Sequence record: OR539219.1
Source of the DNA: Escherichia phage vB-Eco-KMB39
DNA length: 64,000 bases
Strand: one strand, 5' to 3'
Part shown: positions 2,830-60,921 of the stretch, piece after piece
How the letters are laid out: every line of letters begins with the position of its first letter
Position numbering within the stretch: the first letter of the stretch is position 1
Program-made: the position numbers and the translations under genes
Notes under the pieces: model-generated
Database searches by the model: none
What the model was told of the DNA's origin: nothing
The model's input: the letters and a program-made list of their open reading frames with translations, nothing else

Positions 2830-3137
2830 CGGCAACCTTGTCGGGGTTCCACCTGCTAAGGCAAGTGTTTGTACGAAACGCCGGGATTCGAACCCGGTTA
2901 TTAAGTAGTTGACGCTACTCAATATTTTTAAAAGGCCATATCTCGACCATATCCGAACGTTCCGTCAAAAACGCTACTCGGCTTATGGCAAAGATATTTC
3001 CTCGAATCGATAATTCGGTGCGCCGTTTCTGCTGTGATATAAGGGGACATTAACAAAACATAAAGATTTATTAATGCCAGTCCTTAAACAGGGAACATCA
3101 GTCCGACGACTTGCCGGTAGCGACCCGGCTTCTTGTC
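2830..3137 (-). ncRNA. candidate small stable RNA(s), tRNA-like 3' module
   Basis: No ORF; minus strand contains CCGGG-TTCGAAT-CCCGG (T-arm-like) with pairing CGGAACG/CGTTTCG but no CCA and no standard cloverleaf; position recalls T4 species 1/2 RNAs (memory only). Confidence 0.25.
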
Positions 3138-3215
3138 TGGTCGAGGCAGTAGGGATCGAACCTACGACCCAGGACTTAGAAGGTCCTTGCTCTTCCTTCT
3201 GAGCTATGCCTCGTA
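3138..3215 (-). tRNA. tRNA-Arg (anticodon TCT)
   Basis: Hand-folded cloverleaf: acceptor CGAGGCA/TGCCTCG, anticodon loop CTTCTAA, T-arm GTAGG-TTCGATC-CCTAC, encoded CCA. Confidence 0.75.
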
Positions 3216-3217
3216 TT

Positions 3218-3292
3218 TGGCGGACGTGATAGGATTCGAACCTATAACCAATCGCTTAACAGGCGATCGCTCTGCCATTGAGCTACACATCC
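3218..3292 (-). tRNA. tRNA-Asn (anticodon GTT)
   Basis: Acceptor GGATGTG/CACGTCC, anticodon stem ATCGC/GCGAT, loop CTGTTAA, T-arm TAGG-TTCGAAT-CCTA, encoded CCA. Confidence 0.7.
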
Positions 3293-3296
3293 AAAT

Positions 3297-3383
3297 TGGT
3301 GGGGAGTGGTGGAGTCGAACCACCCGAGTCGCAATGACAATGAATTTACAGTCCACACCGCTACCCCTACGGGATAACTCCCC
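3297..3383 (-). tRNA. tRNA-Tyr (anticodon GTA), type II with long variable arm
   Basis: 87 nt; acceptor GGGGAGT/ACTCCCC, anticodon loop CTGTAAA, variable arm GTC-ATTGC-GAC, T-arm GGTGG-TTCGACT-CCACC, CCA; anticodon stem needs two G-U pairs. Confidence 0.55.
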
Positions 3384-3392
3384 AAATTAATT

Positions 3393-3467
3393 TGGTGGCC
3401 CTGGGTGGAATTGAACCACCATCTGGCGATTATGAGTCGCTTGCTTGAACCTTCCAGCTACAGGGCC
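3393..3467 (-). tRNA. tRNA with CAT anticodon (Ile-lysidine or Met)
   Basis: Acceptor GGCCCTG/CAGGGCC, anticodon loop CTCATAA, T-arm GGTGG-TTCAATT-CCACC, encoded CCA. Confidence 0.7.
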
Positions 3468-3468
3468 T

Positions 3469-3545
3469 TGGTGCTGATTGACGGAATCGAACCGCCGACA
3501 TCCTCATTACAAGTGAGGTGCTCTACCTACTGAGCTAAATCAGCA
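3469..3545 (-). tRNA. tRNA-Thr (anticodon TGT)
   Basis: Acceptor TGCTGAT/ATCAGCA, anticodon stem CCTCA/TGAGG, loop CTTGTAA, T-arm GGCGG-TTCGATT-CCGTC, CCA. Confidence 0.8.
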
Positions 3546-3549
3546 AAAC

Positions 3550-3639
3550 TGGCGGAGGCGATAGGATTTGAACCTATGAGTCGCCGGAGCGACTGCCGGT
3601 TTTCAAGACCGGTGCATTCAACCACTCTGCCACGCCTCC
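3550..3639 (-). tRNA. tRNA-Ser (anticodon TGA), type II
   Basis: 90 nt; acceptor GGAGGCG/CGCCTCC, anticodon stem CCGGT/ACCGG, loop CTTGAAA, long variable arm, T-arm TAGG-TTCAAAT-CCTA, CCA. Confidence 0.8.
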
Positions 3640-3642
3640 AAA

Positions 3643-3658
3643 TATTTATATATTTATA
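3643..3658 (-). promoter_or_regulatory. two tandem TATAAATA late-promoter motifs just upstream of tRNA-Ser
   Basis: Plus-strand tatttata at 3643-3650 and 3651-3658 (TATAAATA on minus), between segB stop and tRNA-Ser 5' end; very close to the tRNA 5' end, so function uncertain. Confidence 0.3.
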
Positions 3659-4262
3659 TATTGTTAATTTGATTTAGAATTCTTTTTGCTTGAGTATGAC
3701 TTACGCCAATATGCTTAGCATATTTAGATAATTCGCCGCGTTTAGAAAAATCATATAATTTAGAAATTTCTATTCTTCTTTTTCTTTCATCCGCAGAAAC
3801 TTTTGCTTCGTTTGCTTTTGCTATTTTACGTTTAGCTTCTTGAGAATGAGTTTTACCAGCAAAGCCATTCTTCATTAATCCATTTGAAGACCATCCTTTT
3901 AATTTTCCGTTAGAATGTGCCTTTTTAACACCCAATGAAATTAATTCGCGTTGCTGATCTGTCATAGGATAATTATTTATATGATCCCATCCACCTTCAC
4001 CTCCAAGTTTTAAATTATACACATCTGGTCTATTTAAAAACTCTTCTGTGACAATATTTTTCTCGGCTTCAAGCATAGATTCTTTATCATCAAAATACTC
4101 TAATATTTCTTTAGAAAAATTTTCTATACCATATTTATCTTGGGCTCTTTTTAATAATTTACCAGAACCCATATATCCATCATCTAAATTTTCGGTAGAA
4201 TGCACACCAATATAAATTTTATTATTAATTTTATTTGTTATTTTATAAAGATAAAAATGCAT
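3654..4262 (-). CDS. segB: GIY-YIG homing endonuclease embedded in the tRNA cluster
   Basis: GIY-YIG motifs FYLYKITNKINNKIYIG and YMGSG; start moved from 4304 to ATG 4262 to avoid overlapping tRNA-Gly; segB-like position by memory of T4. Confidence 0.75.
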   Translation of the reverse strand: MHFYLYKITNKINNKIYIGVHSTENLDDGYMGSGKLLKRAQDKYGIENFSKEILEYFDDKESMLEAEKNIVTEEFLNRPDVYNLKLGGEGGWDHINNYPMTDQQRELISLGVKKAHSNGKLKGWSSNGLMKNGFAGKTHSQEAKRKIAKANEAKVSADERKRRIEISKLYDFSKRGELSKYAKHIGVSHTQAKRILNQINNI

Positions 4263-4308
4263 ATCAGTCCCTAATAAAGAACTGAGCGTCTCACGACGAG
4301 TCATAAAT

Positions 4309-4382
<74 letters not shown>

Positions 4383-4387
4383 AAATT

Positions 4388-4474
4388 TGGTGCGAGAAGT
4401 GGGACTCGAACCCACAAGGAAATAATTCCGCAGCATTTTAAGTGCTGTGCCTTTACCAATTTGACCATTCTCGC
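4388..4474 (-). tRNA. tRNA-Leu (anticodon TAA), type II
   Basis: 87 nt; anticodon loop CTTAAAA, long variable arm, T-arm GTGGG-TTCGAGT-CCCAC, CCA; matches my recollection of T4 tRNA-Leu. Confidence 0.85.
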
Positions 4475-4475
4475 G

Positions 4476-4548
4476 CTGGGAATAAAGGACTCGAACCTTT
4501 GCATCCTGGAATCAAAATCCAGTGCCTTACCAACTTGGCTAATTCCCA
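4476..4548 (-). tRNA. tRNA-Gln (anticodon TTG), CCA not encoded, 1-nt spacer to tRNA-Leu
   Basis: Acceptor TGGGAAT/ATTCCCA plus discriminator G, anticodon stem CTGGA/TCCAG, loop TTTTGAT, T-arm AAAGG-TTCGAGT-CCTTT. Confidence 0.8.
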
Positions 4549-4634
4549 ATTATTAACAAAGGCTCTTTAGCAAGAACCCTTGATGATAGAGGGTATTAAT
4601 CAGTGCGGTATGAGTTAATAATAACAAATAATTC

Positions 4635-5150
4635 TTAAAGCAAATTAATCATTTTAACGGTCGGCAAAACAATTTCTTCTTCAATATAAGCGAATTCGAC
4701 GCTTTCAACTACACGTAGGAAATCATAGTCATAGTATTCAGAAGCATGACCAAGAATATCAATGAGGCCTTCAGATATCTTATTACCATTCACAAAGAAT
4801 AAGTCAAATACACGTTCTTCGTCTTCTTCGGATTTATTACCAAGGTCAACTTCTATATCAAAGACCTTTTTAATGAATTCTGGATAAAGCTGGTCTGAGA
4901 ACAGTCCTTCAACCAAGTATTCATAAATAAAAAGCGATTGCTCGCTGAACAAGCCATTACCACAATAACGTTCAGCTTTAGTACTAGAATGTCTACTTTT
5001 AAACTTCTTTAAAAGATATTGAAATTGTAAGATTTCATGCTCTTCTACGCCAAACAGTGTTTTAGTTTTATAGTTGTCACCATCATTTTCCCATGTAGTT
5101 ACATCAATCACATAACCCTGCGGAATTGTAGTACCTAAACAAACATTCAT
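4635..5150 (-). CDS. hypothetical strongly acidic protein
   Basis: 171-aa ORF; about one residue in five is D or E; start overlaps the stop of the upstream gene. Confidence 0.6.
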   Translation of the reverse strand: MNVCLGTTIPQGYVIDVTTWENDGDNYKTKTLFGVEEHEILQFQYLLKKFKSRHSSTKAERYCGNGLFSEQSLFIYEYLVEGLFSDQLYPEFIKKVFDIEVDLGNKSEEDEERVFDLFFVNGNKISEGLIDILGHASEYYDYDFLRVVESVEFAYIEEEIVLPTVKMINLL

Positions 5151-5440
5151 TTGCTCACCATATTAATGTAAGTATATTCAATACATTCAAGACCCAAAGG
5201 ATTCTTGAAAATATCATATTCAAGAGGACCTTTTTCCGTTTCAATAAAGAAATCAAAATTTACTGTATTAAATTTACGGTCTTCCTTCACTAATTTAACC
5301 TGAGAAGATGAACGGTCAATGTAAACCTTTTCAACTTCAAAACACGTTAAAATGCCATAATCATCAATCAAGGCTTTAGCTGCTTCTTGATCATATTTAT
5401 ATCCATTTTCAACGGACGATACTTTAGCATAAAGAATCAT
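5147..5440 (-). CDS. hypothetical protein
   Basis: 97-aa ORF tightly packed in the same minus-strand operon. Confidence 0.55.
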   Translation of the reverse strand: MILYAKVSSVENGYKYDQEAAKALIDDYGILTCFEVEKVYIDRSSSQVKLVKEDRKFNTVNFDFFIETEKGPLEYDIFKNPLGLECIEYTYINMVSK

Positions 5441-5442
5441 TA

Positions 5443-5832
5443 TCAGCCTTCATCAACAATAGTATGAGTGTGAGCATTTACAATTTGCCACCAATCAAAG
5501 CGATTAGAACCATACATCGGTTTGTTTTCATTTTCTTTGATAATATCACGGAGTTCATCTTCGGTAGCGGCTTTCGCGATTAAATCAGCATATCCACCAC
5601 GAGGATAATAATTATCACCTGCAAAAAGTAAAAAGTTTGGTTTAATGTTATTGAACTCTTCAAGAGTAATAACTTTTCCTGACGGTTGAACAATCTCTAC
5701 ATATTTATATCCCAATTTTTGAGCAGCATCTACTGCTTCAAGCAAAGTATCATGAGCCCATCCAATTTGACAACCTGGCTTTTCAGATGGATTAGCCTGA
5801 TAATCCGCATACACTTTATACATTCTATTCAC
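5443..5832 (-). CDS. hypothetical protein
   Basis: 129-aa ORF; its start overlaps the upstream small ORF by 8 nt. Confidence 0.55.
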   Translation of the reverse strand: MNRMYKVYADYQANPSEKPGCQIGWAHDTLLEAVDAAQKLGYKYVEIVQPSGKVITLEEFNNIKPNFLLFAGDNYYPRGGYADLIAKAATEDELRDIIKENENKPMYGSNRFDWWQIVNAHTHTIVDEG

Positions 5833-6010
5833 CTTTAGAAATTTTATCCATAACGATAGCGATTAAACCAATTAAAAATGCTACTACAAGTGAAAAAACG
5901 TTTTCTGCTGTAGTCAATAATCCGCATATAAATCCAACAAACATTGAAAAACTAAAAGCAGAAGCAGAAATTGCAATAGCAACATTTCGAATTAATTCAC
6001 AACGTTTCAT
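5825..6010 (-). CDS. small hydrophobic (likely membrane) protein
   Basis: 61 aa with two hydrophobic stretches; GAGGAG RBS and early-type promoter directly upstream. Confidence 0.5.
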   Translation of the reverse strand: MKRCELIRNVAIAISASAFSFSMFVGFICGLLTTAENVFSLVVAFLIGLIAIVMDKISKGE

Positions 6011-6038
6011 TTTATTCTCCTCAGTAGTTGATAGGGTA

Positions 6039-6068
6039 ATAGTATCACAACTAAAACCCTATGTAAAC
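6039..6068 (-). promoter_or_regulatory. T4-early-type promoter candidate (GTTTAC-N18-TACTAT)
   Basis: Minus strand GTTTAC (plus 6063-6068), TACTAT (plus 6039-6044), A/T-rich upstream; overlaps the 3' end of the internal-protein gene. Confidence 0.45.
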
Positions 6069-6080
6069 AACTTTGTGAAA

Positions 6081-6338
6081 TTATTTTAAATCTTCTAATC
6101 GTTTCTTCATCTTAGAACCATTTTTAGCAATTTCTCCTGCATCGGAGCATAACGCTAAAAGTGCTTTAACTTTAGTTTGGTCTCCTTTAAAAGACGAAGG
6201 ATCGACCGCAGCAGCAAGTTCTTTAATACGAGAGAAAAGACGCTCAGCTTCAGCTAAAGCCATTCCAAGCTTTACTTCCATACCGTGGGAAGATTCGGTG
6301 ATAGTAGTTTTTGTAGCAAACTCTTTGAAAGTTTTCAT
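6081..6338 (-). CDS. internal protein (IPI-locus type) with capsid-targeting N-terminus
   Basis: 85 aa; N-terminus MKTFKEFATKTTITE with I-T-E protease site; sits next to 57B as ipI does in T4 (memory). Confidence 0.6.
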   Translation of the reverse strand: MKTFKEFATKTTITESSHGMEVKLGMALAEAERLFSRIKELAAAVDPSSFKGDQTKVKALLALCSDAGEIAKNGSKMKKRLEDLK

Positions 6339-6368
6339 TTTATTTTCCTAATTAATTTTGATGAGGTA

Positions 6369-6398
6369 ATAGTATCACTACCTCATCAGCATGTAAAC
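6369..6398 (-). promoter_or_regulatory. T4-early-type promoter candidate (GTTTAC-N18-TACTAT), near-identical repeat of 6039..6068
   Basis: 33-nt block atgtaaacaactttgtgaaattattttaaatc is identical at 6061-6093 and 6391-6423. Confidence 0.45.
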
Positions 6399-6410
6399 AA
6401 CTTTGTGAAA

Positions 6411-7095
<685 letters not shown>

Positions 7096-7096
<1 letters not shown>

Positions 7097-7821
7097 TATA
7101 GTACCTTTAGTGTATTTTTAATTTTAGAAAAAAGTTCTTCAAGAGAACCATCGTTTGTAATTACTAAATCGCCATCACGAATTGGCAATCCAGCTTCTGT
7201 AATATGTGTATCATTGGATTTTTGACCAGGACGAACTACATGAATTACTGTAGCACCCATCGCCCTAGCCGCATCCATTTCATGATCTTGACGGGTATCA
7301 GGAACGATATAATAATCATAACCTGAGTTAAATTTATCAAGATAATCTAAAGCAAATAATTTTACCCAATACATGCGGTCGAAGTTATTAACAATCAAAT
7401 CCGTACCTAGGGCTTGCATCAGACGACGGACTGACCATTGATCTTCAATATTATTTATAACGTCAATAATCTTGTTAAATGCTACGGAATTAACTGATTC
7501 TTGTCCTTCGTCATCAAAAACAAACACACCTTTAATTGGGCTTTTACCGTTAAGATAGCAAAATGCTTGTTCCATAATCGTGATTACTTCTAATTTAGTC
7601 AGATTTAAATTAGTCTCACGATCATAGTCAATTCCTTCAAACTCTTTACGAGTTAAGCAAGGATAGTCAGTGTTTGCTGCAAATACTCCCCATGCATAAG
7701 CCAATGCATCCTTAATAGGACCAGCAAGTTGGTATTTAACTGCAGAATAATTGCTCATGATAAAATCAGCAGTAGTATCTTTTCCACTACGCTTTACACC
7801 GCTTAAAAAGATTAGTTTCAT
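7096..7821 (-). CDS. 1: deoxynucleoside monophosphate kinase gp1
   Basis: Start set to ATG 7821 (MKLIFLSGVKRSGKDT, P-loop GxxxxGK(S/T)); track ORF begins 13 codons upstream; GAGGAG RBS. Confidence 0.9.
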
Positions 7822-7846
7822 GTGTTTCTCCTCAAATTTAATTAAG

Positions 7847-7876
7847 ATTATAACACACAAAACTGAAGCATTAAAC
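7847..7876 (-). promoter_or_regulatory. middle-type promoter candidate: MotA box TGCTTCA plus extended -10 TGtTATAAT
   Basis: Minus strand GTTTAATGCTTCA-N10-TATAAT; MotA-box-like element 11 nt upstream of the -10 hexamer. Confidence 0.4.
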
Positions 7877-8401
7877 TTCTGCTATAATTTTTCCATCTTT
7901 TTCTACTTGAAAATAGGTGTAAGGAATCGTAGCTGTACATACTAAAGCCGGGTCTGAATCTTCTGTGTAGCTAAATTCTACTTCAGACAGGTCAGAAACC
8001 CAAGGCTTATAAAAATTTATTGACATCACGATTTCAGTTTTACTATTATCTAAAATGTAAAGCGTAATGTATTCAGGACCTGTTTTTTGGGCAGTATTTT
8101 CGCCTGTAAGATAGTTACTAGTTCCTAGCATCCATTCATACATTCCTATCCATGACTTAAGCTCTTCATCAACTATAAATCTCACGATGAGTGGGTCGTA
8201 CTCAAATGTAACACCTGGACGTTGTGCTCGGCCTAGTCCAAACGGCCCAGTCACGGTATCAGTAACAGGTATCCTAATTCCCGGAATAGGAACTGACTGA
8301 GCATTTAAAGTAAAAGCAGATGTAGTATTACTATGCGGTATTGATACTACAAAGTTAGTTGTATTTGCTTGGTTAAAAATTTGTTGTAGTGCTTGCGACA
8401 T
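7871..8401 (-). CDS. 3: tail completion / sheath stabiliser protein gp3
   Basis: Start moved to ATG 8401 (MSQALQQIF...); synteny 1-3-2-4. Confidence 0.7.
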   Translation of the reverse strand: MSQALQQIFNQANTTNFVVSIPHSNTTSAFTLNAQSVPIPGIRIPVTDTVTGPFGLGRAQRPGVTFEYDPLIVRFIVDEELKSWIGMYEWMLGTSNYLTGENTAQKTGPEYITLYILDNSKTEIVMSINFYKPWVSDLSEVEFSYTEDSDPALVCTATIPYTYFQVEKDGKIIAEV

Positions 8402-8507
8402 ATATTCCTCATAATGCTTCATAAATGTTGGTGGTATAATGGGTCTAAGTCCCTTCCATTCAATTCCAATTAGAACAAACAACAGAAAAGAATGGAAGAT
8501 AATAGAA

Positions 8508-9167
8508 TTAATTTATTAGACTTCTTAAACGAGCAGAAGTCATAAATGGAAATTTTTCTAAAGTTGGCTTTCGCCAATATCTTGGATGACAAGTTGATTT
8601 AAAATCAAGAACAATTTTCTTTGCTTCATCAATAGTGTTAACTCCAAAGTTATCTAACATTATTTTCTTTTCTTTTTCCCACCGTTTATTAGCTAAAGCA
8701 GATTGAAGCTTTTTGTTTTTAAATGTGTCATTTTTTCTAGAATGAGTTGTGCCTTGTGTCGGACTCCATCCTCTTCCTAAAATAAATCCCTCAGGAATTA
8801 TATCTCCATCATGTAATTTTATACATCTTTTACCATTATTATAATATTTTCGTCCAGTTTGTGTATTTGAAATATTATTTACATGTTTTCTTTTTAACCA
8901 ACCATAAACTTTATTATTTCTCCTAACATATTTAGTTGAAACCGTCATTTTTATGGCTGCATAAGATAATTTTAAAGAATTTGGGTGTATTTTTACTAAT
9001 AGCTGATGTGCAACATAATGCTCTTCTGGAGTTAAATCAACCAAGTTAGAAGCATCATTACTACCGCCTAAACATTTCGGAATAATATGATGTCTTTCTT
9101 TATATCCAGTAAGGGCTCTATTGCGAGCCCTATCAATTAGTGAATTATAAATTTTTTCATAATTCAT
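8508..9167 (-). CDS. HNH homing endonuclease with NUMOD-like C-terminal repeats, inserted between genes 3 and 2
   Basis: Motif [29 protein letters not shown]; ATG 9167 overlaps the gp2 stop (ATGA); paralogue of 46927..47619. Confidence 0.75.
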
Positions 9168-9991
9168 CGTACATTGCTCCAAACTTTGTTTGCAGAGAAA
9201 CGTTTTCCTTTGGAGTAGAAGCTTTGGAGTGGCATCAACACAACGTTCGCCCAGTCTTTCGGGGCGATTTCAACAAGGCTACCCATAATATTACCGGGTA
9301 TATATGCCTTAATCATTTGGTCTGCACCCCTAAATCCTTTCACTTGACTCCAATCAATTTTTAATTTCGTTTTATTAGTAATAGTAGGTGTATTTGAATA
9401 TTGCTTTAAAAGCTCTTCTAGAAATTGCTGACGAGCTTTAGGTGGAATATAGTGCAAGTTTAATCCGTACATTAAATTGTGCTTACCTAAACCAAGGTAA
9501 ATTATCAAAGGAAATTTATCCCAGTAAGGAAGAGTTTCCTTGTGTTTAGCATCATAAGCAAAAGCATATATTCGTCCCGGTTGCGGGCGAACAACTTTAT
9601 GTCCTTTTACTTGCTTAATAGTTTCAGCAAACCACTTTCTGGTTTTATTATTAATTGCTGCACCTTCATTACGAATTTTATCACGCAATGTTTGTCTGAA
9701 TGAATTTATCATAAGCAGTTGTCTTTCTTGCTTATTGAGTTTATTCATTGGTTTTGATTCAAGCTTTTGAATCTTTTCAGCCGTTTTAATTCCTGAAGCA
9801 TATTTTGACATTGCTGAAGTAAACGTAGAGTATTTGATTCCTCTTTCTTCAGCAAATTGCTTTCCTGTCATTCCTTTTGCTTTGGCCTTTTTATATTCAA
9901 GACCTATCTGAATCCATTTCTTTTCGTTTAATGATTGCTTAACCTTTGGAACTTGGGGAGTGCTTTCATTAATTATTTGAAAAATAGCCAT
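9164..9991 (-). CDS. 2: DNA end protector protein gp2
   Basis: 275-aa ORF between genes 3 and 4; assigned by synteny and size. Confidence 0.7.
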
Positions 9992-56145: not shown

Positions 56146-56149
56146 CAAT

Positions 56150-56167
56150 GGGGACCTTTCGGTCCCC
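56150..56167. terminator. bidirectional terminator between gene 54 and the convergent minus-strand genes
   Basis: GGGGACC-TTTC-GGTCCCC followed by ATATTTTTATTTA. Confidence 0.5.
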
Positions 56168-56173
56168 ATATTT

Positions 56174-56464
56174 TTATTTACGGAATGAAATGAAAGCAGC
56201 AACTGAAGCAACTAAACTGTCTTCAATATAAACTTCAATTTTTACCGGAGCTTCTGACTCAAATTTACCTGTTACTACACCCTGAAAAATACTTTCAGTC
56301 TGTTTTGGCTTTGAAAAATTTTCAGAAGGAAAAATTCCGAACTTTTTATCTGTTCCAAAAATTTTGATAAATTCATCGTAAACTGCTTCATTAAAAGCGT
56401 TATCAGCAGGAATAACGCCTTCAACTACAAGTTCTTGACCTAAAAAGCGCAAAGAAGATTTCAT
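56174..56464 (-). CDS. hypothetical protein
   Basis: 96-aa ORF with GAGGA RBS and an early-type promoter upstream. Confidence 0.55.
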   Translation of the reverse strand: MKSSLRFLGQELVVEGVIPADNAFNEAVYDEFIKIFGTDKKFGIFPSENFSKPKQTESIFQGVVTGKFESEAPVKIEVYIEDSLVASVAAFISFRK

Positions 56465-56495: not shown

Positions 56496-56525
56496 ACTAT
56501 AACACAACATAAGGAACTTGTAAAC
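56496..56525 (-). promoter_or_regulatory. T4-early-type promoter candidate (GTTTAC-N18-TGtTATAGT)
   Basis: Minus strand GTTTAC (plus 56520-56525) overlapping the Alt-like stop; extended -10 at plus 56496-56501. Confidence 0.4.
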
Positions 56526-58582
56526 TACATTTTGAACTTTTTAGACATTCCGTTGATGTTAACCAAAGAAGCCAAGATTTGAGAAACTTCGTTTTCCTCT
56601 TCTTTTGATTCTTCTACAAGAAATTGATTAAATCCAGCCATTGGACGAACTTCACCAGTTTCCATTAGATGGTCTCCATCATATACTGATTCTTCTAATT
56701 GTTCAGAAGGAGGAACGATTGTACCTTCAATTAGATACTTGTTATAAGCAGTTTCTTTCATAAAGTACGTACTTACTTTATTAATCTTCAGTAAAATTCC
56801 ACGCGGTAGAATAACTTCAGCTTCTGATGGAAATCCTGATAAATGACCTGGAACGATAACTTTGATTCGCTCAGCTCCTTTAATTACCATACCCACGCTA
56901 GTTTCAGCATCTTCATTAGCATATGTAGAATGACTACCCATATGCATCAAATCTTCTGCATCAACGGAATCTTCTCCTTCACCGGAAAATACTGCGCCGG
57001 AATCATCTAGAGCCATATAGTTTTTACCATGCTCACCGAAGATATTTGGTTTAAGCGATGTGGATACGAAGTTCTTGAAATAAAACATTTTATTTTCAAT
57101 GTTATGACGCAAAGTTTTAAAGGTAACTTCTTGTCCACGGTAAAGCGTAGTTCCTGGAGGAAGAACTGAACCTTTAGCGAATGCAGAATCCAACGTCTCG
57201 ATGTGCTTAATAGCACGTTCCATATATTCTTCACGGGTAGAATCTGGTTTACCCAAAAGGAACGAGTTCATTTCAACATATGAATCTGCACAATAATCTT
57301 CAATTACATCAGACTCAGCCTGAGTCAGTCCTTTTGGAGTTACTTCAGTGCTTGCGTATTCATATGCCTGAGCAGCAGATTCATTAATCAATTTATAAAT
57401 GCCATTCATGACAAATTGAATAATAGCTGTCTTTTCATCTGGCGTAGCTTTAGAACCTTTAACCAAATCATTGATAATTTTCTTAATAACATCAAAGCTA
57501 TTAGAAATATTAATGTCAGCAAGATCGCTTAAAATTTTATCGGTTTTATAATCAAAGAATTCTTTATTCTTTAAATATTCTTGAGAACCTTGATATGTTA
57601 TATCGCTCTGCAGCTTGATAGATGGATCACGTAAACGCGCATGGGCCAATGCGATATGATTTCGGAAGTTTTCTAGTTCATAATCGCTAGATTTAAAACG
57701 AGAAGCACTCCTCATACCACCAATAGCTCCTTTGCTGAAGTTTGAACCAATCTGGATAACGCCAGAGTTCATTGGTCCTTCTGCTTTATATACCGGAACT
57801 TTAGATTCAAACTCTTGATATTTCTTGGCAGCGAAGCTATCACCCTGAAGTGAAGCATCAACAGTAGAATATTGAGCTTGTGCTGCTAATCGACGACTGA
57901 TTTTAGTTTTCTGAATAACAGCTTGGTCCGTGCGTTTATCATTTTCTAAAGCAATAGAAGCAGCAACAGCGACAGCTTTAGGAACAGCATTTCCTGTTTT
58001 AACGTCTACATAAACATCACCGACCTTTGATTCAACTTTTGTGAATAACTCAGTTGAAATAGGAGGTACACCTGGAATGTCTTCTAAATTGGCATTTTTA
58101 CGGTAAACCATAATATATGCATACTTTTTATCATAGTCCCAGATTTCCTTTAAAAGAACATATCGACCTGCTCCTTTAGTACGTACTAAACGGTCAGCAA
58201 TAACTTGCATTTGACGAGCTGCGCCATTTGTTTTACTCTTTAGTACACGGAATAAGCACGCGTCAATTTTGTACTGCTTCATTGTTTGAAGAGCAGTATC
58301 AAAAACAGCATTAATGACGCCAATTGGATTTCCACCCAAGTTTCTAAGCTTAACCAGCGATAATTTCTCGTTGACACCTATCATTACGATATGCATCATT
58401 TTATCGCCTAGTTTAACGTTTTTATTTGTATCACCACCAGAGGTGTATGTACAAAATCTAAATCCAGGAAGCACGCTTTCTTCGCCGGCTTGGATAGCAA
58501 AAATTTGAGGTATTTTATGCTTAGGATTTAAGTTAACAACCGGCGCCGAAGCGCCGTCAAATAATTCTGTAATAAGTTCCAT
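56525..58582 (-). CDS. Alt-like ADP-ribosyltransferase, paralogue A
   Basis: 685 aa; N-terminal ~230 aa closely match the upstream paralogue; C-terminal R...STS...ExE motifs (YRGQ, FVSTSL, SEAEV); AGGA RBS. Confidence 0.8.
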   Translation of the reverse strand: MELITELFDGASAPVVNLNPKHKIPQIFAIQAGEESVLPGFRFCTYTSGGDTNKNVKLGDKMMHIVMIGVNEKLSLVKLRNLGGNPIGVINAVFDTALQTMKQYKIDACLFRVLKSKTNGAARQMQVIADRLVRTKGAGRYVLLKEIWDYDKKYAYIMVYRKNANLEDIPGVPPISTELFTKVESKVGDVYVDVKTGNAVPKAVAVAASIALENDKRTDQAVIQKTKISRRLAAQAQYSTVDASLQGDSFAAKKYQEFESKVPVYKAEGPMNSGVIQIGSNFSKGAIGGMRSASRFKSSDYELENFRNHIALAHARLRDPSIKLQSDITYQGSQEYLKNKEFFDYKTDKILSDLADINISNSFDVIKKIINDLVKGSKATPDEKTAIIQFVMNGIYKLINESAAQAYEYASTEVTPKGLTQAESDVIEDYCADSYVEMNSFLLGKPDSTREEYMERAIKHIETLDSAFAKGSVLPPGTTLYRGQEVTFKTLRHNIENKMFYFKNFVSTSLKPNIFGEHGKNYMALDDSGAVFSGEGEDSVDAEDLMHMGSHSTYANEDAETSVGMVIKGAERIKVIVPGHLSGFPSEAEVILPRGILLKINKVSTYFMKETAYNKYLIEGTIVPPSEQLEESVYDGDHLMETGEVRPMAGFNQFLVEESKEEENEVSQILASLVNINGMSKKFKM

Positions 58583-58585
58583 GAT

Positions 58586-60679
58586 TTATCCTTGAACGAA
58601 CTTGTAAGGCATGTTTGTAATATCTATGCAAGACGCAATAATTCCAAGAGATGATTCTACTTTCTGTTTAACATTTGATGAAACAAATGATGCAAAGTCA
58701 ACTTTGTCTTCTATTTCAATATCACCTGTCATTGCAACTACTTCGCCGGTTTCCATTAAACGGTCACCGTCATAAATTACCGATTCGGTGAGTTCTTCTG
58801 TGGTCATAACTTCAGCTTGAATGAGTTTTGTATTATTAGACGTGATTCCGTCATTATTAGAAGCATCAGTTATTTTATTAACTTTGACCATCAATCCACG
58901 CGGTAGAATAACTTCAGCTTCTGTTGCTATTCCGAGACTTCCTGGATATACAACATTAACTTTATGAGCTCCATCAATTGCCCATCCTATTTGAACTTTA
59001 ACGTATTCAGGATTTTCTTTATACGCTCTTATTTCGTTTGGATTAATAGTTATTCCTTCTTCATTTTTATCAACTGTTAATTCATTGCGAGCTTCTGGTT
59101 CTAAAAGACCAATACCAGCATGTGTAATTCCAAAACGTCCAAAAATGATAGGAGTTAAAGAAGTAGATACAAAATTTCTGAAATAGAACACTTTATTTTT
59201 AACTAGTGCTTCGTATATAGGAGCAGTCATACTTTGAGCACGATAAACTGTAATGCCTTCTGGTATACGGTCACCATTTTCAAAAGCTGAATCTAAATTA
59301 TTTATAGCAGATTCAATTTCTTTTTCACTCATTATATCATATCGTTCTGGATTGTAACGACCTAAAAGAAGATTATTGATGTCTGTATATCCTGAACCAC
59401 AATACTCTCTAATGCCGCGCTTTTGTGATGGAGTATATTTAGAACCATCACGGGCAATAGTAATATCAATCATTGGACCTGCACCAATTCCGGAAAAGCT
59501 ATAAATCATTCGTTTGAGGAATTTAGTTTTTGCTGCATTCCAGGCATTTTTAGTTATTTCTCCCCAGACTTCATCTGGCTGCCCTTTACGAGTTTTATTA
59601 TGTTTATCAAGCCAATTATCTTTATATTCTTCAAATAATTGATTAACAGCTGCTGCGTATTTCTCTAAACATTTTATTGAAGTAGTTGGTTCATTTTTAA
59701 TCGCATTAAGAATTACATCTTTAATTTTTTCTGAAACTTCACCGACTTGACTCATTGGAAAGAATTTATAATCATAGTGAAGTTCATCTGCCGTTCCTTC
59801 AGCAATAATTTTTGCTGCCTTAGTTTTAGAAGCTAATGAATTAATTCCAAGCTTCATTTCTTCTGCTTCGGGAATTAAAGGTGCAGTAGCAGGTTTATTG
59901 AAATTAGCTGCGGTAGATTCATACTTCTGGAATAATTCACTTTCAAATCTAGAAGATTCCAATGACTGACTTTGTGCAATTGCTCTACGGGAAATTTTAA
60001 CTTTAACGATTACGGCTTGGTCAGAACGTTTATCGTTTTCTTGTGCAATAGATGCAGCAATTGCCTCATTTTTGGTTACTTGAGCTCCAGTATCTTTATT
60101 AATATAAACATCACCGACCTTCGATTCAACTTTAGTAAAGAGCTCGGTACTAATTTCCGGAACTCCTGGAATGTCTTCTAGTGATACATTTTTGCGATGT
60201 ATAAGAATATATGCATACTTTTTATCATAATCCCAGAGTTCCTTAAGAAGGACGTATCTGCCACCTGAACGACTACGGATAAGTCTATCAGCAATAACTT
60301 GAATTTGTCGAGCTTGGCCAGCAGTTTTAGACTTAAGAATACGAAGCATACAAGCATCAATTTTATACTGACGCATTGTTTGCATTGCAACAGTAAAAAC
60401 TGAATTGATATAATTAATTGGGCTTGGACCAAGACCTTTTAATTTAGCAATTGAACCTTTAGCAGTTAATGTAAAAGGAACAATATGCATCATTTTGTCG
60501 CCCATTTTTAAATCGCGATTAGTATCACCTCCAGATGTATAGGTACATAAACGAAAGCCTGGTTGTTCAATTGCATCATCAACATGAACTGAAAAAATTT
60601 GTGGTATTTTCTTCTTTGGATTTAAGTTTGTAATCGGAAGAGTAGTATCTTCGTCAAATAATTCTGTAATAAGTTCCAT
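58586..60679 (-). CDS. alt: Alt ADP-ribosyltransferase, paralogue B
   Basis: 697 aa beginning MELITELFDEDTTLPITNL; ART motifs YRAQ, FVSTSL, TEAEV; late promoter directly upstream; which paralogue is orthologous to T4 alt is not resolved. Confidence 0.8.
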   Translation of the reverse strand: MELITELFDEDTTLPITNLNPKKKIPQIFSVHVDDAIEQPGFRLCTYTSGGDTNRDLKMGDKMMHIVPFTLTAKGSIAKLKGLGPSPINYINSVFTVAMQTMRQYKIDACMLRILKSKTAGQARQIQVIADRLIRSRSGGRYVLLKELWDYDKKYAYILIHRKNVSLEDIPGVPEISTELFTKVESKVGDVYINKDTGAQVTKNEAIAASIAQENDKRSDQAVIVKVKISRRAIAQSQSLESSRFESELFQKYESTAANFNKPATAPLIPEAEEMKLGINSLASKTKAAKIIAEGTADELHYDYKFFPMSQVGEVSEKIKDVILNAIKNEPTTSIKCLEKYAAAVNQLFEEYKDNWLDKHNKTRKGQPDEVWGEITKNAWNAAKTKFLKRMIYSFSGIGAGPMIDITIARDGSKYTPSQKRGIREYCGSGYTDINNLLLGRYNPERYDIMSEKEIESAINNLDSAFENGDRIPEGITVYRAQSMTAPIYEALVKNKVFYFRNFVSTSLTPIIFGRFGITHAGIGLLEPEARNELTVDKNEEGITINPNEIRAYKENPEYVKVQIGWAIDGAHKVNVVYPGSLGIATEAEVILPRGLMVKVNKITDASNNDGITSNNTKLIQAEVMTTEELTESVIYDGDRLMETGEVVAMTGDIEIEDKVDFASFVSSNVKQKVESSLGIIASCIDITNMPYKFVQG

Positions 60680-60702
60680 GTTATCCTCTCTAGTGTTTAT
60701 TC

Positions 60703-60710
60703 TATTTATA
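60703..60710 (-). promoter_or_regulatory. late promoter TATAAATA for the alt pair
   Basis: Exact TATAAATA on minus strand 24 nt upstream of the 60679 ATG. Confidence 0.5.
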
Positions 60711-60718
60711 AAATTAAA

Positions 60719-60730
60719 GGCCCGAAGGCC
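60719..60730 (-). terminator. GC hairpin after the 60736..60921 gene
   Basis: GGCC-TTCG-GGCC flanked by A/T triplets. Confidence 0.35.
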
Positions 60731-60735
60731 TTTAA

Positions 60736-60921
60736 TTAATAGAGAGCTAAAAGAGTACGATATACTTCAAACTTTGGACCTTTTTCATATGGATCAAATC
60801 TTTCCATGAATTCATCATATGCTAGTTTATCTGGGAATTCAAGAATAACCTGCGATACCGCAGTGGAAACATCTCCACCTTCTTTTTGAGCCACGACAAT
60901 TGTTTCTAAGTAAGCTTTCAT
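60736..60921 (-). CDS. hypothetical small protein
   Basis: 61-aa ORF whose start overlaps the gene 30 stop. Confidence 0.5.
   Translation of the reverse strand: MKAYLETIVVAQKEGGDVSTAVSQVILEFPDKLAYDEFMERFDPYEKGPKFEVYRTLLALY

Follow-up and report, generated by a model that had tools for sequence, protein, structure and literature searches.

Head-packaged ADP-ribosyltransferases (ARTs) have been described as modular effectors that phages inject into their hosts (Iyer et al. 2022), and Alt of phage T4, which is injected from the head and ADP-ribosylates arginines of RNA polymerase alpha and other host proteins, is the closest described example: mass spectrometry of T4 heads has shown that the protease gp21 trims it by 6 N-terminal (ITE-6) and 63 C-terminal (LTE-619) residues (PMC5694885, PMC9026906). 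The catalytic fold and motifs of these phage proteins are those of the C3, VIP2, iota, CDTa and Vis toxins (Pfam family PF03496), from which they differ in adding a head-associated N-terminal domain of ~240 aa, a variable region made of helices and a C-terminal tail that can be cleaved off, and in being delivered by phage ejection and not by a binary-toxin B component. Paralogues of alt were listed for phages RB49, 44RR and T4 by Nolan et al. (2006), and a paralogue pair has been reported more recently, with functional divergence proposed (PMC13600099, 2026). In this article, we describe such a pair in a 64,000-nucleotide stretch of DNA from Escherichia phage vB-Eco-KMB39 (OR539219.1; hereafter, the window), a T-even (Tequatrovirus) genome segment that carries alt at 58586-60679 (697 aa) and alt.-2 at 56525-58582 (685 aa), both on the minus strand, both intact and 3 nt apart. 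Very probably, the region holds two old paralogues of the T4 Alt family, alt and an intact alt.-2, whose products we propose to be made late, injected and directed at different host targets.

A known gene pair of T4-like coliphages

The pair is real but ordinary: alt followed by a full-length alt.-2 is already known and occurs in most T4-like coliphages. The 4.85-kb locus is present at 95-99% identity in at least 349 phage records, counted as those covering at least 80% of it, including T2, T6 and RB32; 396 records encode an Alt.-2 protein of at least 95% identity, and 772 sequences make up the cluster to which it belongs at 90% identity. Roughly 1,200 phage records have an Alt homologue. The alt.-2 genes of RB32, T2 and T6 are the same gene as that of the window, with the same length (685 aa) and position and a protein identity of 97-99%. 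In the records of RB32 (2006) and T6, the downstream gene is called alt.-2, with the remark 'apparent insertion in alt.-2; similar to alt'; RefSeq names both copies in T2, T6, CM8, RB27, Sf22 and others 'Alt-like RNA polymerase ADP-ribosyltransferase'; and the T4 record states that its alt.-1 and alt.-2 'reflect an old duplication of the first part of gene alt'. Searches of the literature for experiments on alt.-2 turned up annotation-level mentions only (Nolan et al. 2006; PMC13600099), and a paper on anti-restriction by injected proteins, also considered, concerns Ip proteins, not Alt.

A first-pass annotation of the window had put the pair forward as something undescribed, unless close relatives all carried the same two genes with known annotation or one copy had lost its catalytic residues. 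Both copies keep these residues, as detailed below, and close relatives do carry the two genes under existing annotations; with the locus in some 350 records, the gene annotated in RB32, T6 and RefSeq, and the pair in print (PMC13600099), the claim of novelty does not stand. The two ORFs (open reading frames) themselves, of 685 and 697 aa, were placed and assigned to the Alt family correctly, since gene coordinates, PF03496 and the phage protein family phrog_802 all agree.

The window proteins share with T4 Alt their genomic position, full-length homology, the R-S-ExE residues, a late-promoter motif and both gp21 motifs. In pairwise BLASTP alignments, which the earlier reading had proposed as a check, Alt is 70% identical to T4 Alt and 98% to T2 Alt, Alt.-2 is 41% identical to T4 Alt, and the two window proteins are 40% identical to each other over their full length (E = 5e-162).

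Catalytic residues and predicted fold

Both proteins score well above the gathering score (23.4) of Pfam ADPrib_exo_Tox, PF03496, with 72 bits for Alt.-2 and 129 bits for Alt, and both match phrog_802 (Alt-like RNA polymerase ADP-ribosyltransferase) from end to end, with E = 6e-256 and 9e-272, respectively; NCBIfam has no family for either. The protein database puts a precomputed Pfam label, PF26846, on these proteins. The catalytic motifs are present in both copies, as first quoted: Alt.-2 has YRGQ at 481 (Y481-R482), STS at 507-509 and E587-A-E589, and Alt has YRAQ at 479 (Y479-R480), STS at 505-507 and E587-A-E589. Across a 19-member family alignment, R482, S507, S509, E587 and E589 (Alt.-2 numbering) are invariant. 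By the rule that separates C2 and iota toxins from C3, an ExE motif, as opposed to QxE, predicts arginine specificity. Both proteins carry the R-S-ExE triad of arginine-specific mono-ARTs of the C3/VIP2 type, and their own specificity for arginine is predicted by analogy.

A sequence search of the PDB with Alt.-2 found no relative and thus yielded no experimental structure from the Alt family, and the fold was therefore compared through a predicted model. The AlphaFold model, made for Alt.-2 only, has a mean pLDDT (predicted local distance difference test) of 75 and a pTM (predicted template modelling score) of 0.63. It comprises an alpha/beta N-terminal domain (~14-215), an all-helical middle (~250-470), a C-terminal domain of mixed alpha/beta structure and a tail that is disordered from residue 630. 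Foldseek against the PDB matches the model to Vis toxin, C3 exoenzyme, CDTa, iota-like toxins, VIP2 and Certhrax with a probability of 1.00, E values down to 3e-8 and a target-normalised template modelling score of ~0.6. The structure prediction that had been suggested for the pair thus assigns to Alt.-2 an ART fold of the R-S-E clade (C3/VIP2 type), at the level of a model.

Identity between the two copies is spread unevenly over the domains. Over the N-terminal ~238 aa, protein identity is 66-68% and DNA identity 65%, well short of the 'near-identical' ~230 aa of the first-pass annotation; the central region, rightly described there as strongly diverged, is 5-20% identical (13% in a domain-wise comparison that gives 68% for the N-terminal domain); and the catalytic domain is 35% identical. 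In Alt.-2, the N-terminal alpha/beta domain, which contains the ITE-6 site and is presumed to direct packaging, covers codons 1-238 (57869-58582, minus strand); the variable all-helical central region covers codons 239-415 (57338-57868), the catalytic domain with R482, S507-T-S509 and E587-x-E589 codons 416-625 (56708-57337), and the C-terminal tail, predicted to be disordered and presumed to be a propeptide, codons 626-685 (56525-56707). Between STS and ExE lies a loop in which Alt, Alt.-2 and T4 Alt are related neither in sequence nor in length. In Alt.-2, this loop (residues 516-560, window ~56903-57037) is very acidic, and the model is less certain here than anywhere else in the catalytic domain; the loop is a candidate determinant of substrate choice.

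Packaging and processing signals

Both gp21 cleavage motifs of T4 Alt are present, at the level of motifs, in both window proteins. Alt and Alt.-2 both start with MELITE|L, the ITE-6 prohead-protease motif, and at the position aligned to LTE-619 of T4 Alt they have LTE-633|S and LEE-631|S, respectively, each followed by a conserved V(I)YDGDxLMETGE, a sequence that lies in the tail of Alt.-2. Residues E6 and E631 are invariant in the family alignment. Because the cleavage motifs occur together with a shared N-terminal domain, the most economical reading is that Alt.-2, too, would be incorporated into the head and processed by gp21.

If Alt.-2 were instead left out of the head, it could act late inside the producing cell, as a third Mod-like enzyme. 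Such a role would agree with the fact that no virion proteomics covering Alt.-2 turned up in the searchable literature, and an own late transcript is possible from a promoter-like motif, TATAAATA, inside alt. We nevertheless regard it as very improbable, given that the N-terminal domain is held in common with packaged Alt (68% identity), that both gp21 cleavage motifs are kept, with E6 and E631 invariant, and that packaging features would have no obvious use in a non-packaged enzyme.

Modular architecture across the Tevenvirinae

Compared with T4 Alt, the Alt of the window carries a different central-plus-catalytic cassette, with a protein identity of 32% in the central region and 65% in the catalytic domain; Alt.-2 is more distant still, at 13% and 35%. 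In DNA, nt 1-738 of the window alt are 97.4% identical to T4 alt, nt 739-1854 (58826-59941, minus strand), the exchangeable cassette, are 57% identical, and nt 1855-2094 are 92.5% identical, a pattern of sharp boundaries by which the window alt reads as a recombination mosaic relative to T4 alt. There are at least two cassette alleles in Tequatrovirus, the T2 type in ~316 records and the T4 type in ~212.

Tandem arrays of alt genes, known from RB49 and 44RR as paralogues, extend the comparison to another genus. Shigella phage PSD9, a Dhakavirus, carries three alt genes in tandem at the corresponding locus (3097-9209 of the PSD9 locus), so that the position and the principle of tandem paralogues are those seen here, with three copies in Dhakavirus against two in Tequatrovirus. 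The window Alt corresponds to the second PSD9 copy, to which it is 47% identical in the N-terminal domain, 67% in the central region and 94% in the catalytic domain, and Alt.-2 corresponds to the third and last copy; its identities to that copy and to JS10 Alt are 45-46%, 44% and 56-57% for the same three parts. The N-terminal domains of the PSD9 copies are 62-67% identical among themselves, and N-terminal domains across genera are only 42-47% identical. In the first PSD9 copy (631 aa), the central region and the tail resemble those of no Tequatrovirus copy (9-15% and 19-23% identity).

By these comparisons, Alt proteins are modular, with an N-terminal domain that tracks the phage genus and a central-plus-catalytic cassette that tracks the cassette type across genera, an arrangement that fits the modular injected effectors of Iyer et al. 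(2022). From the same pattern it follows that the duplication predates the split of these genera and is therefore old, and the T2-type cassette, at least, has moved between genera recently. The N-terminal domain would either co-evolve with the head of each phage or be homogenised between tandem copies.

The same comparisons bear on the possibility that Alt.-2 simply provides a redundant second dose of RNA polymerase alpha ADP-ribosylation and has no target set of its own. The two enzymes belong to the same family, lie in the same transcription unit and share the ExE motif of the arginine type, all of which would suit such a role. The identity of Alt.-2 to Alt, though, is only 13% for the central region and 35% for the catalytic domain, and the STS-ExE loop is unrelated. 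Moreover, each of the two cassette types persists across genera as a lineage of its own, which speaks for functions that were selected separately; redundancy is thus an unlikely explanation. That RNA polymerase alpha (Arg265) is a target of Alt.-2 as well is uncertain, because its cassette is divergent.

Selection on alt.-2 and its loss in T4

Ten alt.-2 orthologues, from this window, RB32, T2, T6, WL-3, FL34, BF15, SHFML-26, Shinka and HP3, are all open and free of indels. The ratio of nonsynonymous to synonymous substitution rates (dN/dS, Nei-Gojobori) is 0.05 for the whole gene, 0.02 for the N-terminal domain, 0.09 for the central region and 0.04 for both the catalytic domain and the C-terminal tail. 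Accordingly, alt.-2 is under strong purifying selection, neither diversifying now nor decaying. The first-pass annotation had spoken of a duplicated, diversifying pair, of which the duplication holds, the genes being paralogues, and the diversification does not, at least for the present; the duplication is old. Two further candidate explanations, a recent duplication under diversifying selection and an alt.-2 pseudogene, were both rejected on the dN/dS of 0.05 and on the pre-existence of both cassette types in another genus.

T4 itself is atypical at this locus and represents a derived deletion state, not the norm. Its alt.-1/alt.-2 (1066-1451 of the T4 locus) aligns to the first ~350 nt of the window alt.-2 and then to its last ~20 nt, and is thus a deleted remnant of that gene; T4 keeps only one intact alt, in agreement with the single alt given for it in the first-pass annotation. 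In this remnant, a 1-nt deletion, located further upstream than the 1.7-kb deletion, shifts the frame, and a short direct repeat (CTAAAGAGT / CTAAAAAGT) marks the deletion junction. Of 40 records taken at even spacing from the 501 that match, 8 (~20%) have the T4-type junction, so about one-fifth of Tequatroviruses would share the deletion and about four-fifths keep the full gene. Some phages, for instance SHFML-26, combine an intact alt.-2 with an alt allele of the T4 type. Since T4 has lost alt.-2, the gene is dispensable on laboratory hosts.

This loss, in T4 and ~20% of its relatives, is the chief argument for seeing in Alt.-2 a catalytically dead or decaying duplicate, a head filler on its way to the T4 state, and it may be added that Alt itself is non-essential in T4 (PMC9026906). 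What makes decay a remote prospect is that all catalytic residues are invariant, that the dN/dS of the catalytic domain is 0.04, that all 10 sampled orthologues are intact and indel-free, and that the fold appears, in the model, to be retained.

Organisation and transcription of the locus

The pair lies between gene 30 and alt.1 on one side and alt.-3 and gene 54 on the other. Its neighbours are gp29, gp48 and gp54 on the plus strand and, on the minus strand together with alt and alt.-2, alt.-3, alt.1 and the DNA ligase gene (gene 30), in a gene order that matches T4, RB32, T2 and T6. The alt gene (58586-60679) is an allele of the T2/T6/RB32 type and comprises an N-terminal domain, a variable helical region, an R-S-ExE ART domain and a C-terminal propeptide; alt.-2 (56525-58582), in its full-length form, encodes the second Alt-family ART, as judged from its ORF, PF03496 and phrog_802.

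Upstream of alt, a GC-rich hairpin (AAAGGCC-TTCG-GGCCTTT) followed by a T-run, at 60716-60733 on the minus strand, was read from the sequence as a likely terminator. It stands directly after the alt.1 stop codon, is not listed by a consensus terminator scan, and likely sets the gene 30/alt.1 unit apart from that of alt; five of six T4-like genomes keep a terminator in front of alt (Nolan et al. 2006). The small alt.1 gene (60736-60921, 61 aa) shares 4 nt with the end of the ligase gene, and its product gives a full-length match (E = 4e-28) to Pfam PF24647, 'Phage blade protein'.

The T4-type late promoter motif TATAAATA lies on the minus strand at 60703-60710 and precedes the ATG of alt by 23 nt; the window has 25 occurrences of the motif, against 10 expected. 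The same strand has a second copy at 59299-59306, within the coding sequence of alt (codons A-I-N-N) and 717 nt upstream of the second gene; T2-type alleles keep it and T4-type alleles lack it. This copy may serve alt.-2 as a late promoter within alt, or it may match the motif by chance. Of the single late promoter first proposed for the pair, the upstream motif is therefore confirmed, whereas its uniqueness is not, because the second motif inside alt leaves the pair without a strictly single one. The second gene does have a ribosome-binding site of its own, as had been noted, the Shine-Dalgarno sequence AAGGA at 58589-58593 (minus strand), which stands 6 nt ahead of the ATG and reaches into the final codons and the stop codon of alt; the gap of 3 nt between the genes makes translational coupling possible.

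Downstream of alt.-2, the 60-nt gap before alt.-3 contains an early-type promoter-like site, (G)TTTACA-17-TATAGT, at 56496-56524 (minus strand), with 10 of 12 matches and a TG. The alt.-3 gene (56174-56464, minus strand), identified from its ORF and Pfam, encodes a 96-aa DUF5498 protein, with no further gene between it and the terminator; T4 mutants whose Alt.-3 is extended at the C terminus evade the CmdTAC defence system (PMC11618068). A terminator scan places a bidirectional terminator hairpin at 56148-56169, between alt.-3 and gene 54, which is the likely end of a late alt/alt.-2/alt.-3 transcript. A hairpin scan found no minus-strand terminator-like hairpin within alt, alt.-2 or alt.-3 before this point.

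Proposed mode of action

Taken together, these features point to the following course of events. Late transcription would start from the motif at 60703-60710 and probably run through alt, alt.-2 and alt.-3 to the terminator at 56148-56169, so that both proteins would be made late from one transcript, alt.-2 being translated from its own Shine-Dalgarno sequence and possibly coupled to alt. Alt and Alt.-2 would then enter the prohead core, be trimmed by gp21 and be ejected into the host with the DNA. There, each enzyme is expected to move ADP-ribose from nicotinamide adenine dinucleotide (NAD+) to arginines in its own set of host proteins, the choice of targets depending, presumably, on the central helical region, which is unrelated between the two, and on variable loops in the catalytic domain. 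Only the sequence-level steps of this course are read directly from the DNA, and we infer expression, packaging, activity and targets from them.

Several points weigh against two injected enzymes with separate targets. About one-fifth of Tequatroviruses, T4 included, have no intact alt.-2, and the contribution of the gene is therefore conditional at best. No experiment on Alt.-2 turned up in the searchable literature, and its expression, packaging, injection, activity and targets are all matters of deduction. The confidence of the Alt.-2 model is only moderate (pTM 0.63), with the variable loop 516-560 poorly predicted, and alt.-2 could be expressed separately, from the internal TATAAATA at 59299-59306.

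Implications for T-even infection

As a discovery, the pair is minor: it is present in hundreds of deposited genomes, has a RefSeq name and has been remarked on in print. What this analysis adds is the modularity of the Alt proteins, which leaves their classification unchanged. The view of 'the three T4 ADP-ribosyltransferases' overlooks a fourth enzyme, conserved and apparently active, of T2, T6 and most wild relatives.

A broader interpretation, to which we give a little less than an even chance, is that the Alt locus of the Tevenvirinae constitutes a small arsenal of injected effectors, in which a genus-specific packaging domain is joined to interchangeable cassettes and each cassette type has a different host target. 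The cassettes, each made up of the helical region and the ART domain, may have been recombined within and between genera, and the types may include the T4 type, the T2 type, the Alt.-2 type and that of the first Dhakavirus copy, with targets that may be ADP-ribosylated at injection. Alt has been reported to modify MazF. For Alt.-2, a specific target could be envisaged, possibly a host defence protein. If true, this interpretation would explain why alt.-2 is kept in ~80% of Tequatroviruses and was lost in laboratory T4. Should Alt.-2 have a target of its own, that target would add to the picture of how T-even phages act in the first seconds of infection, and a counter-defence function might emerge from its identity.

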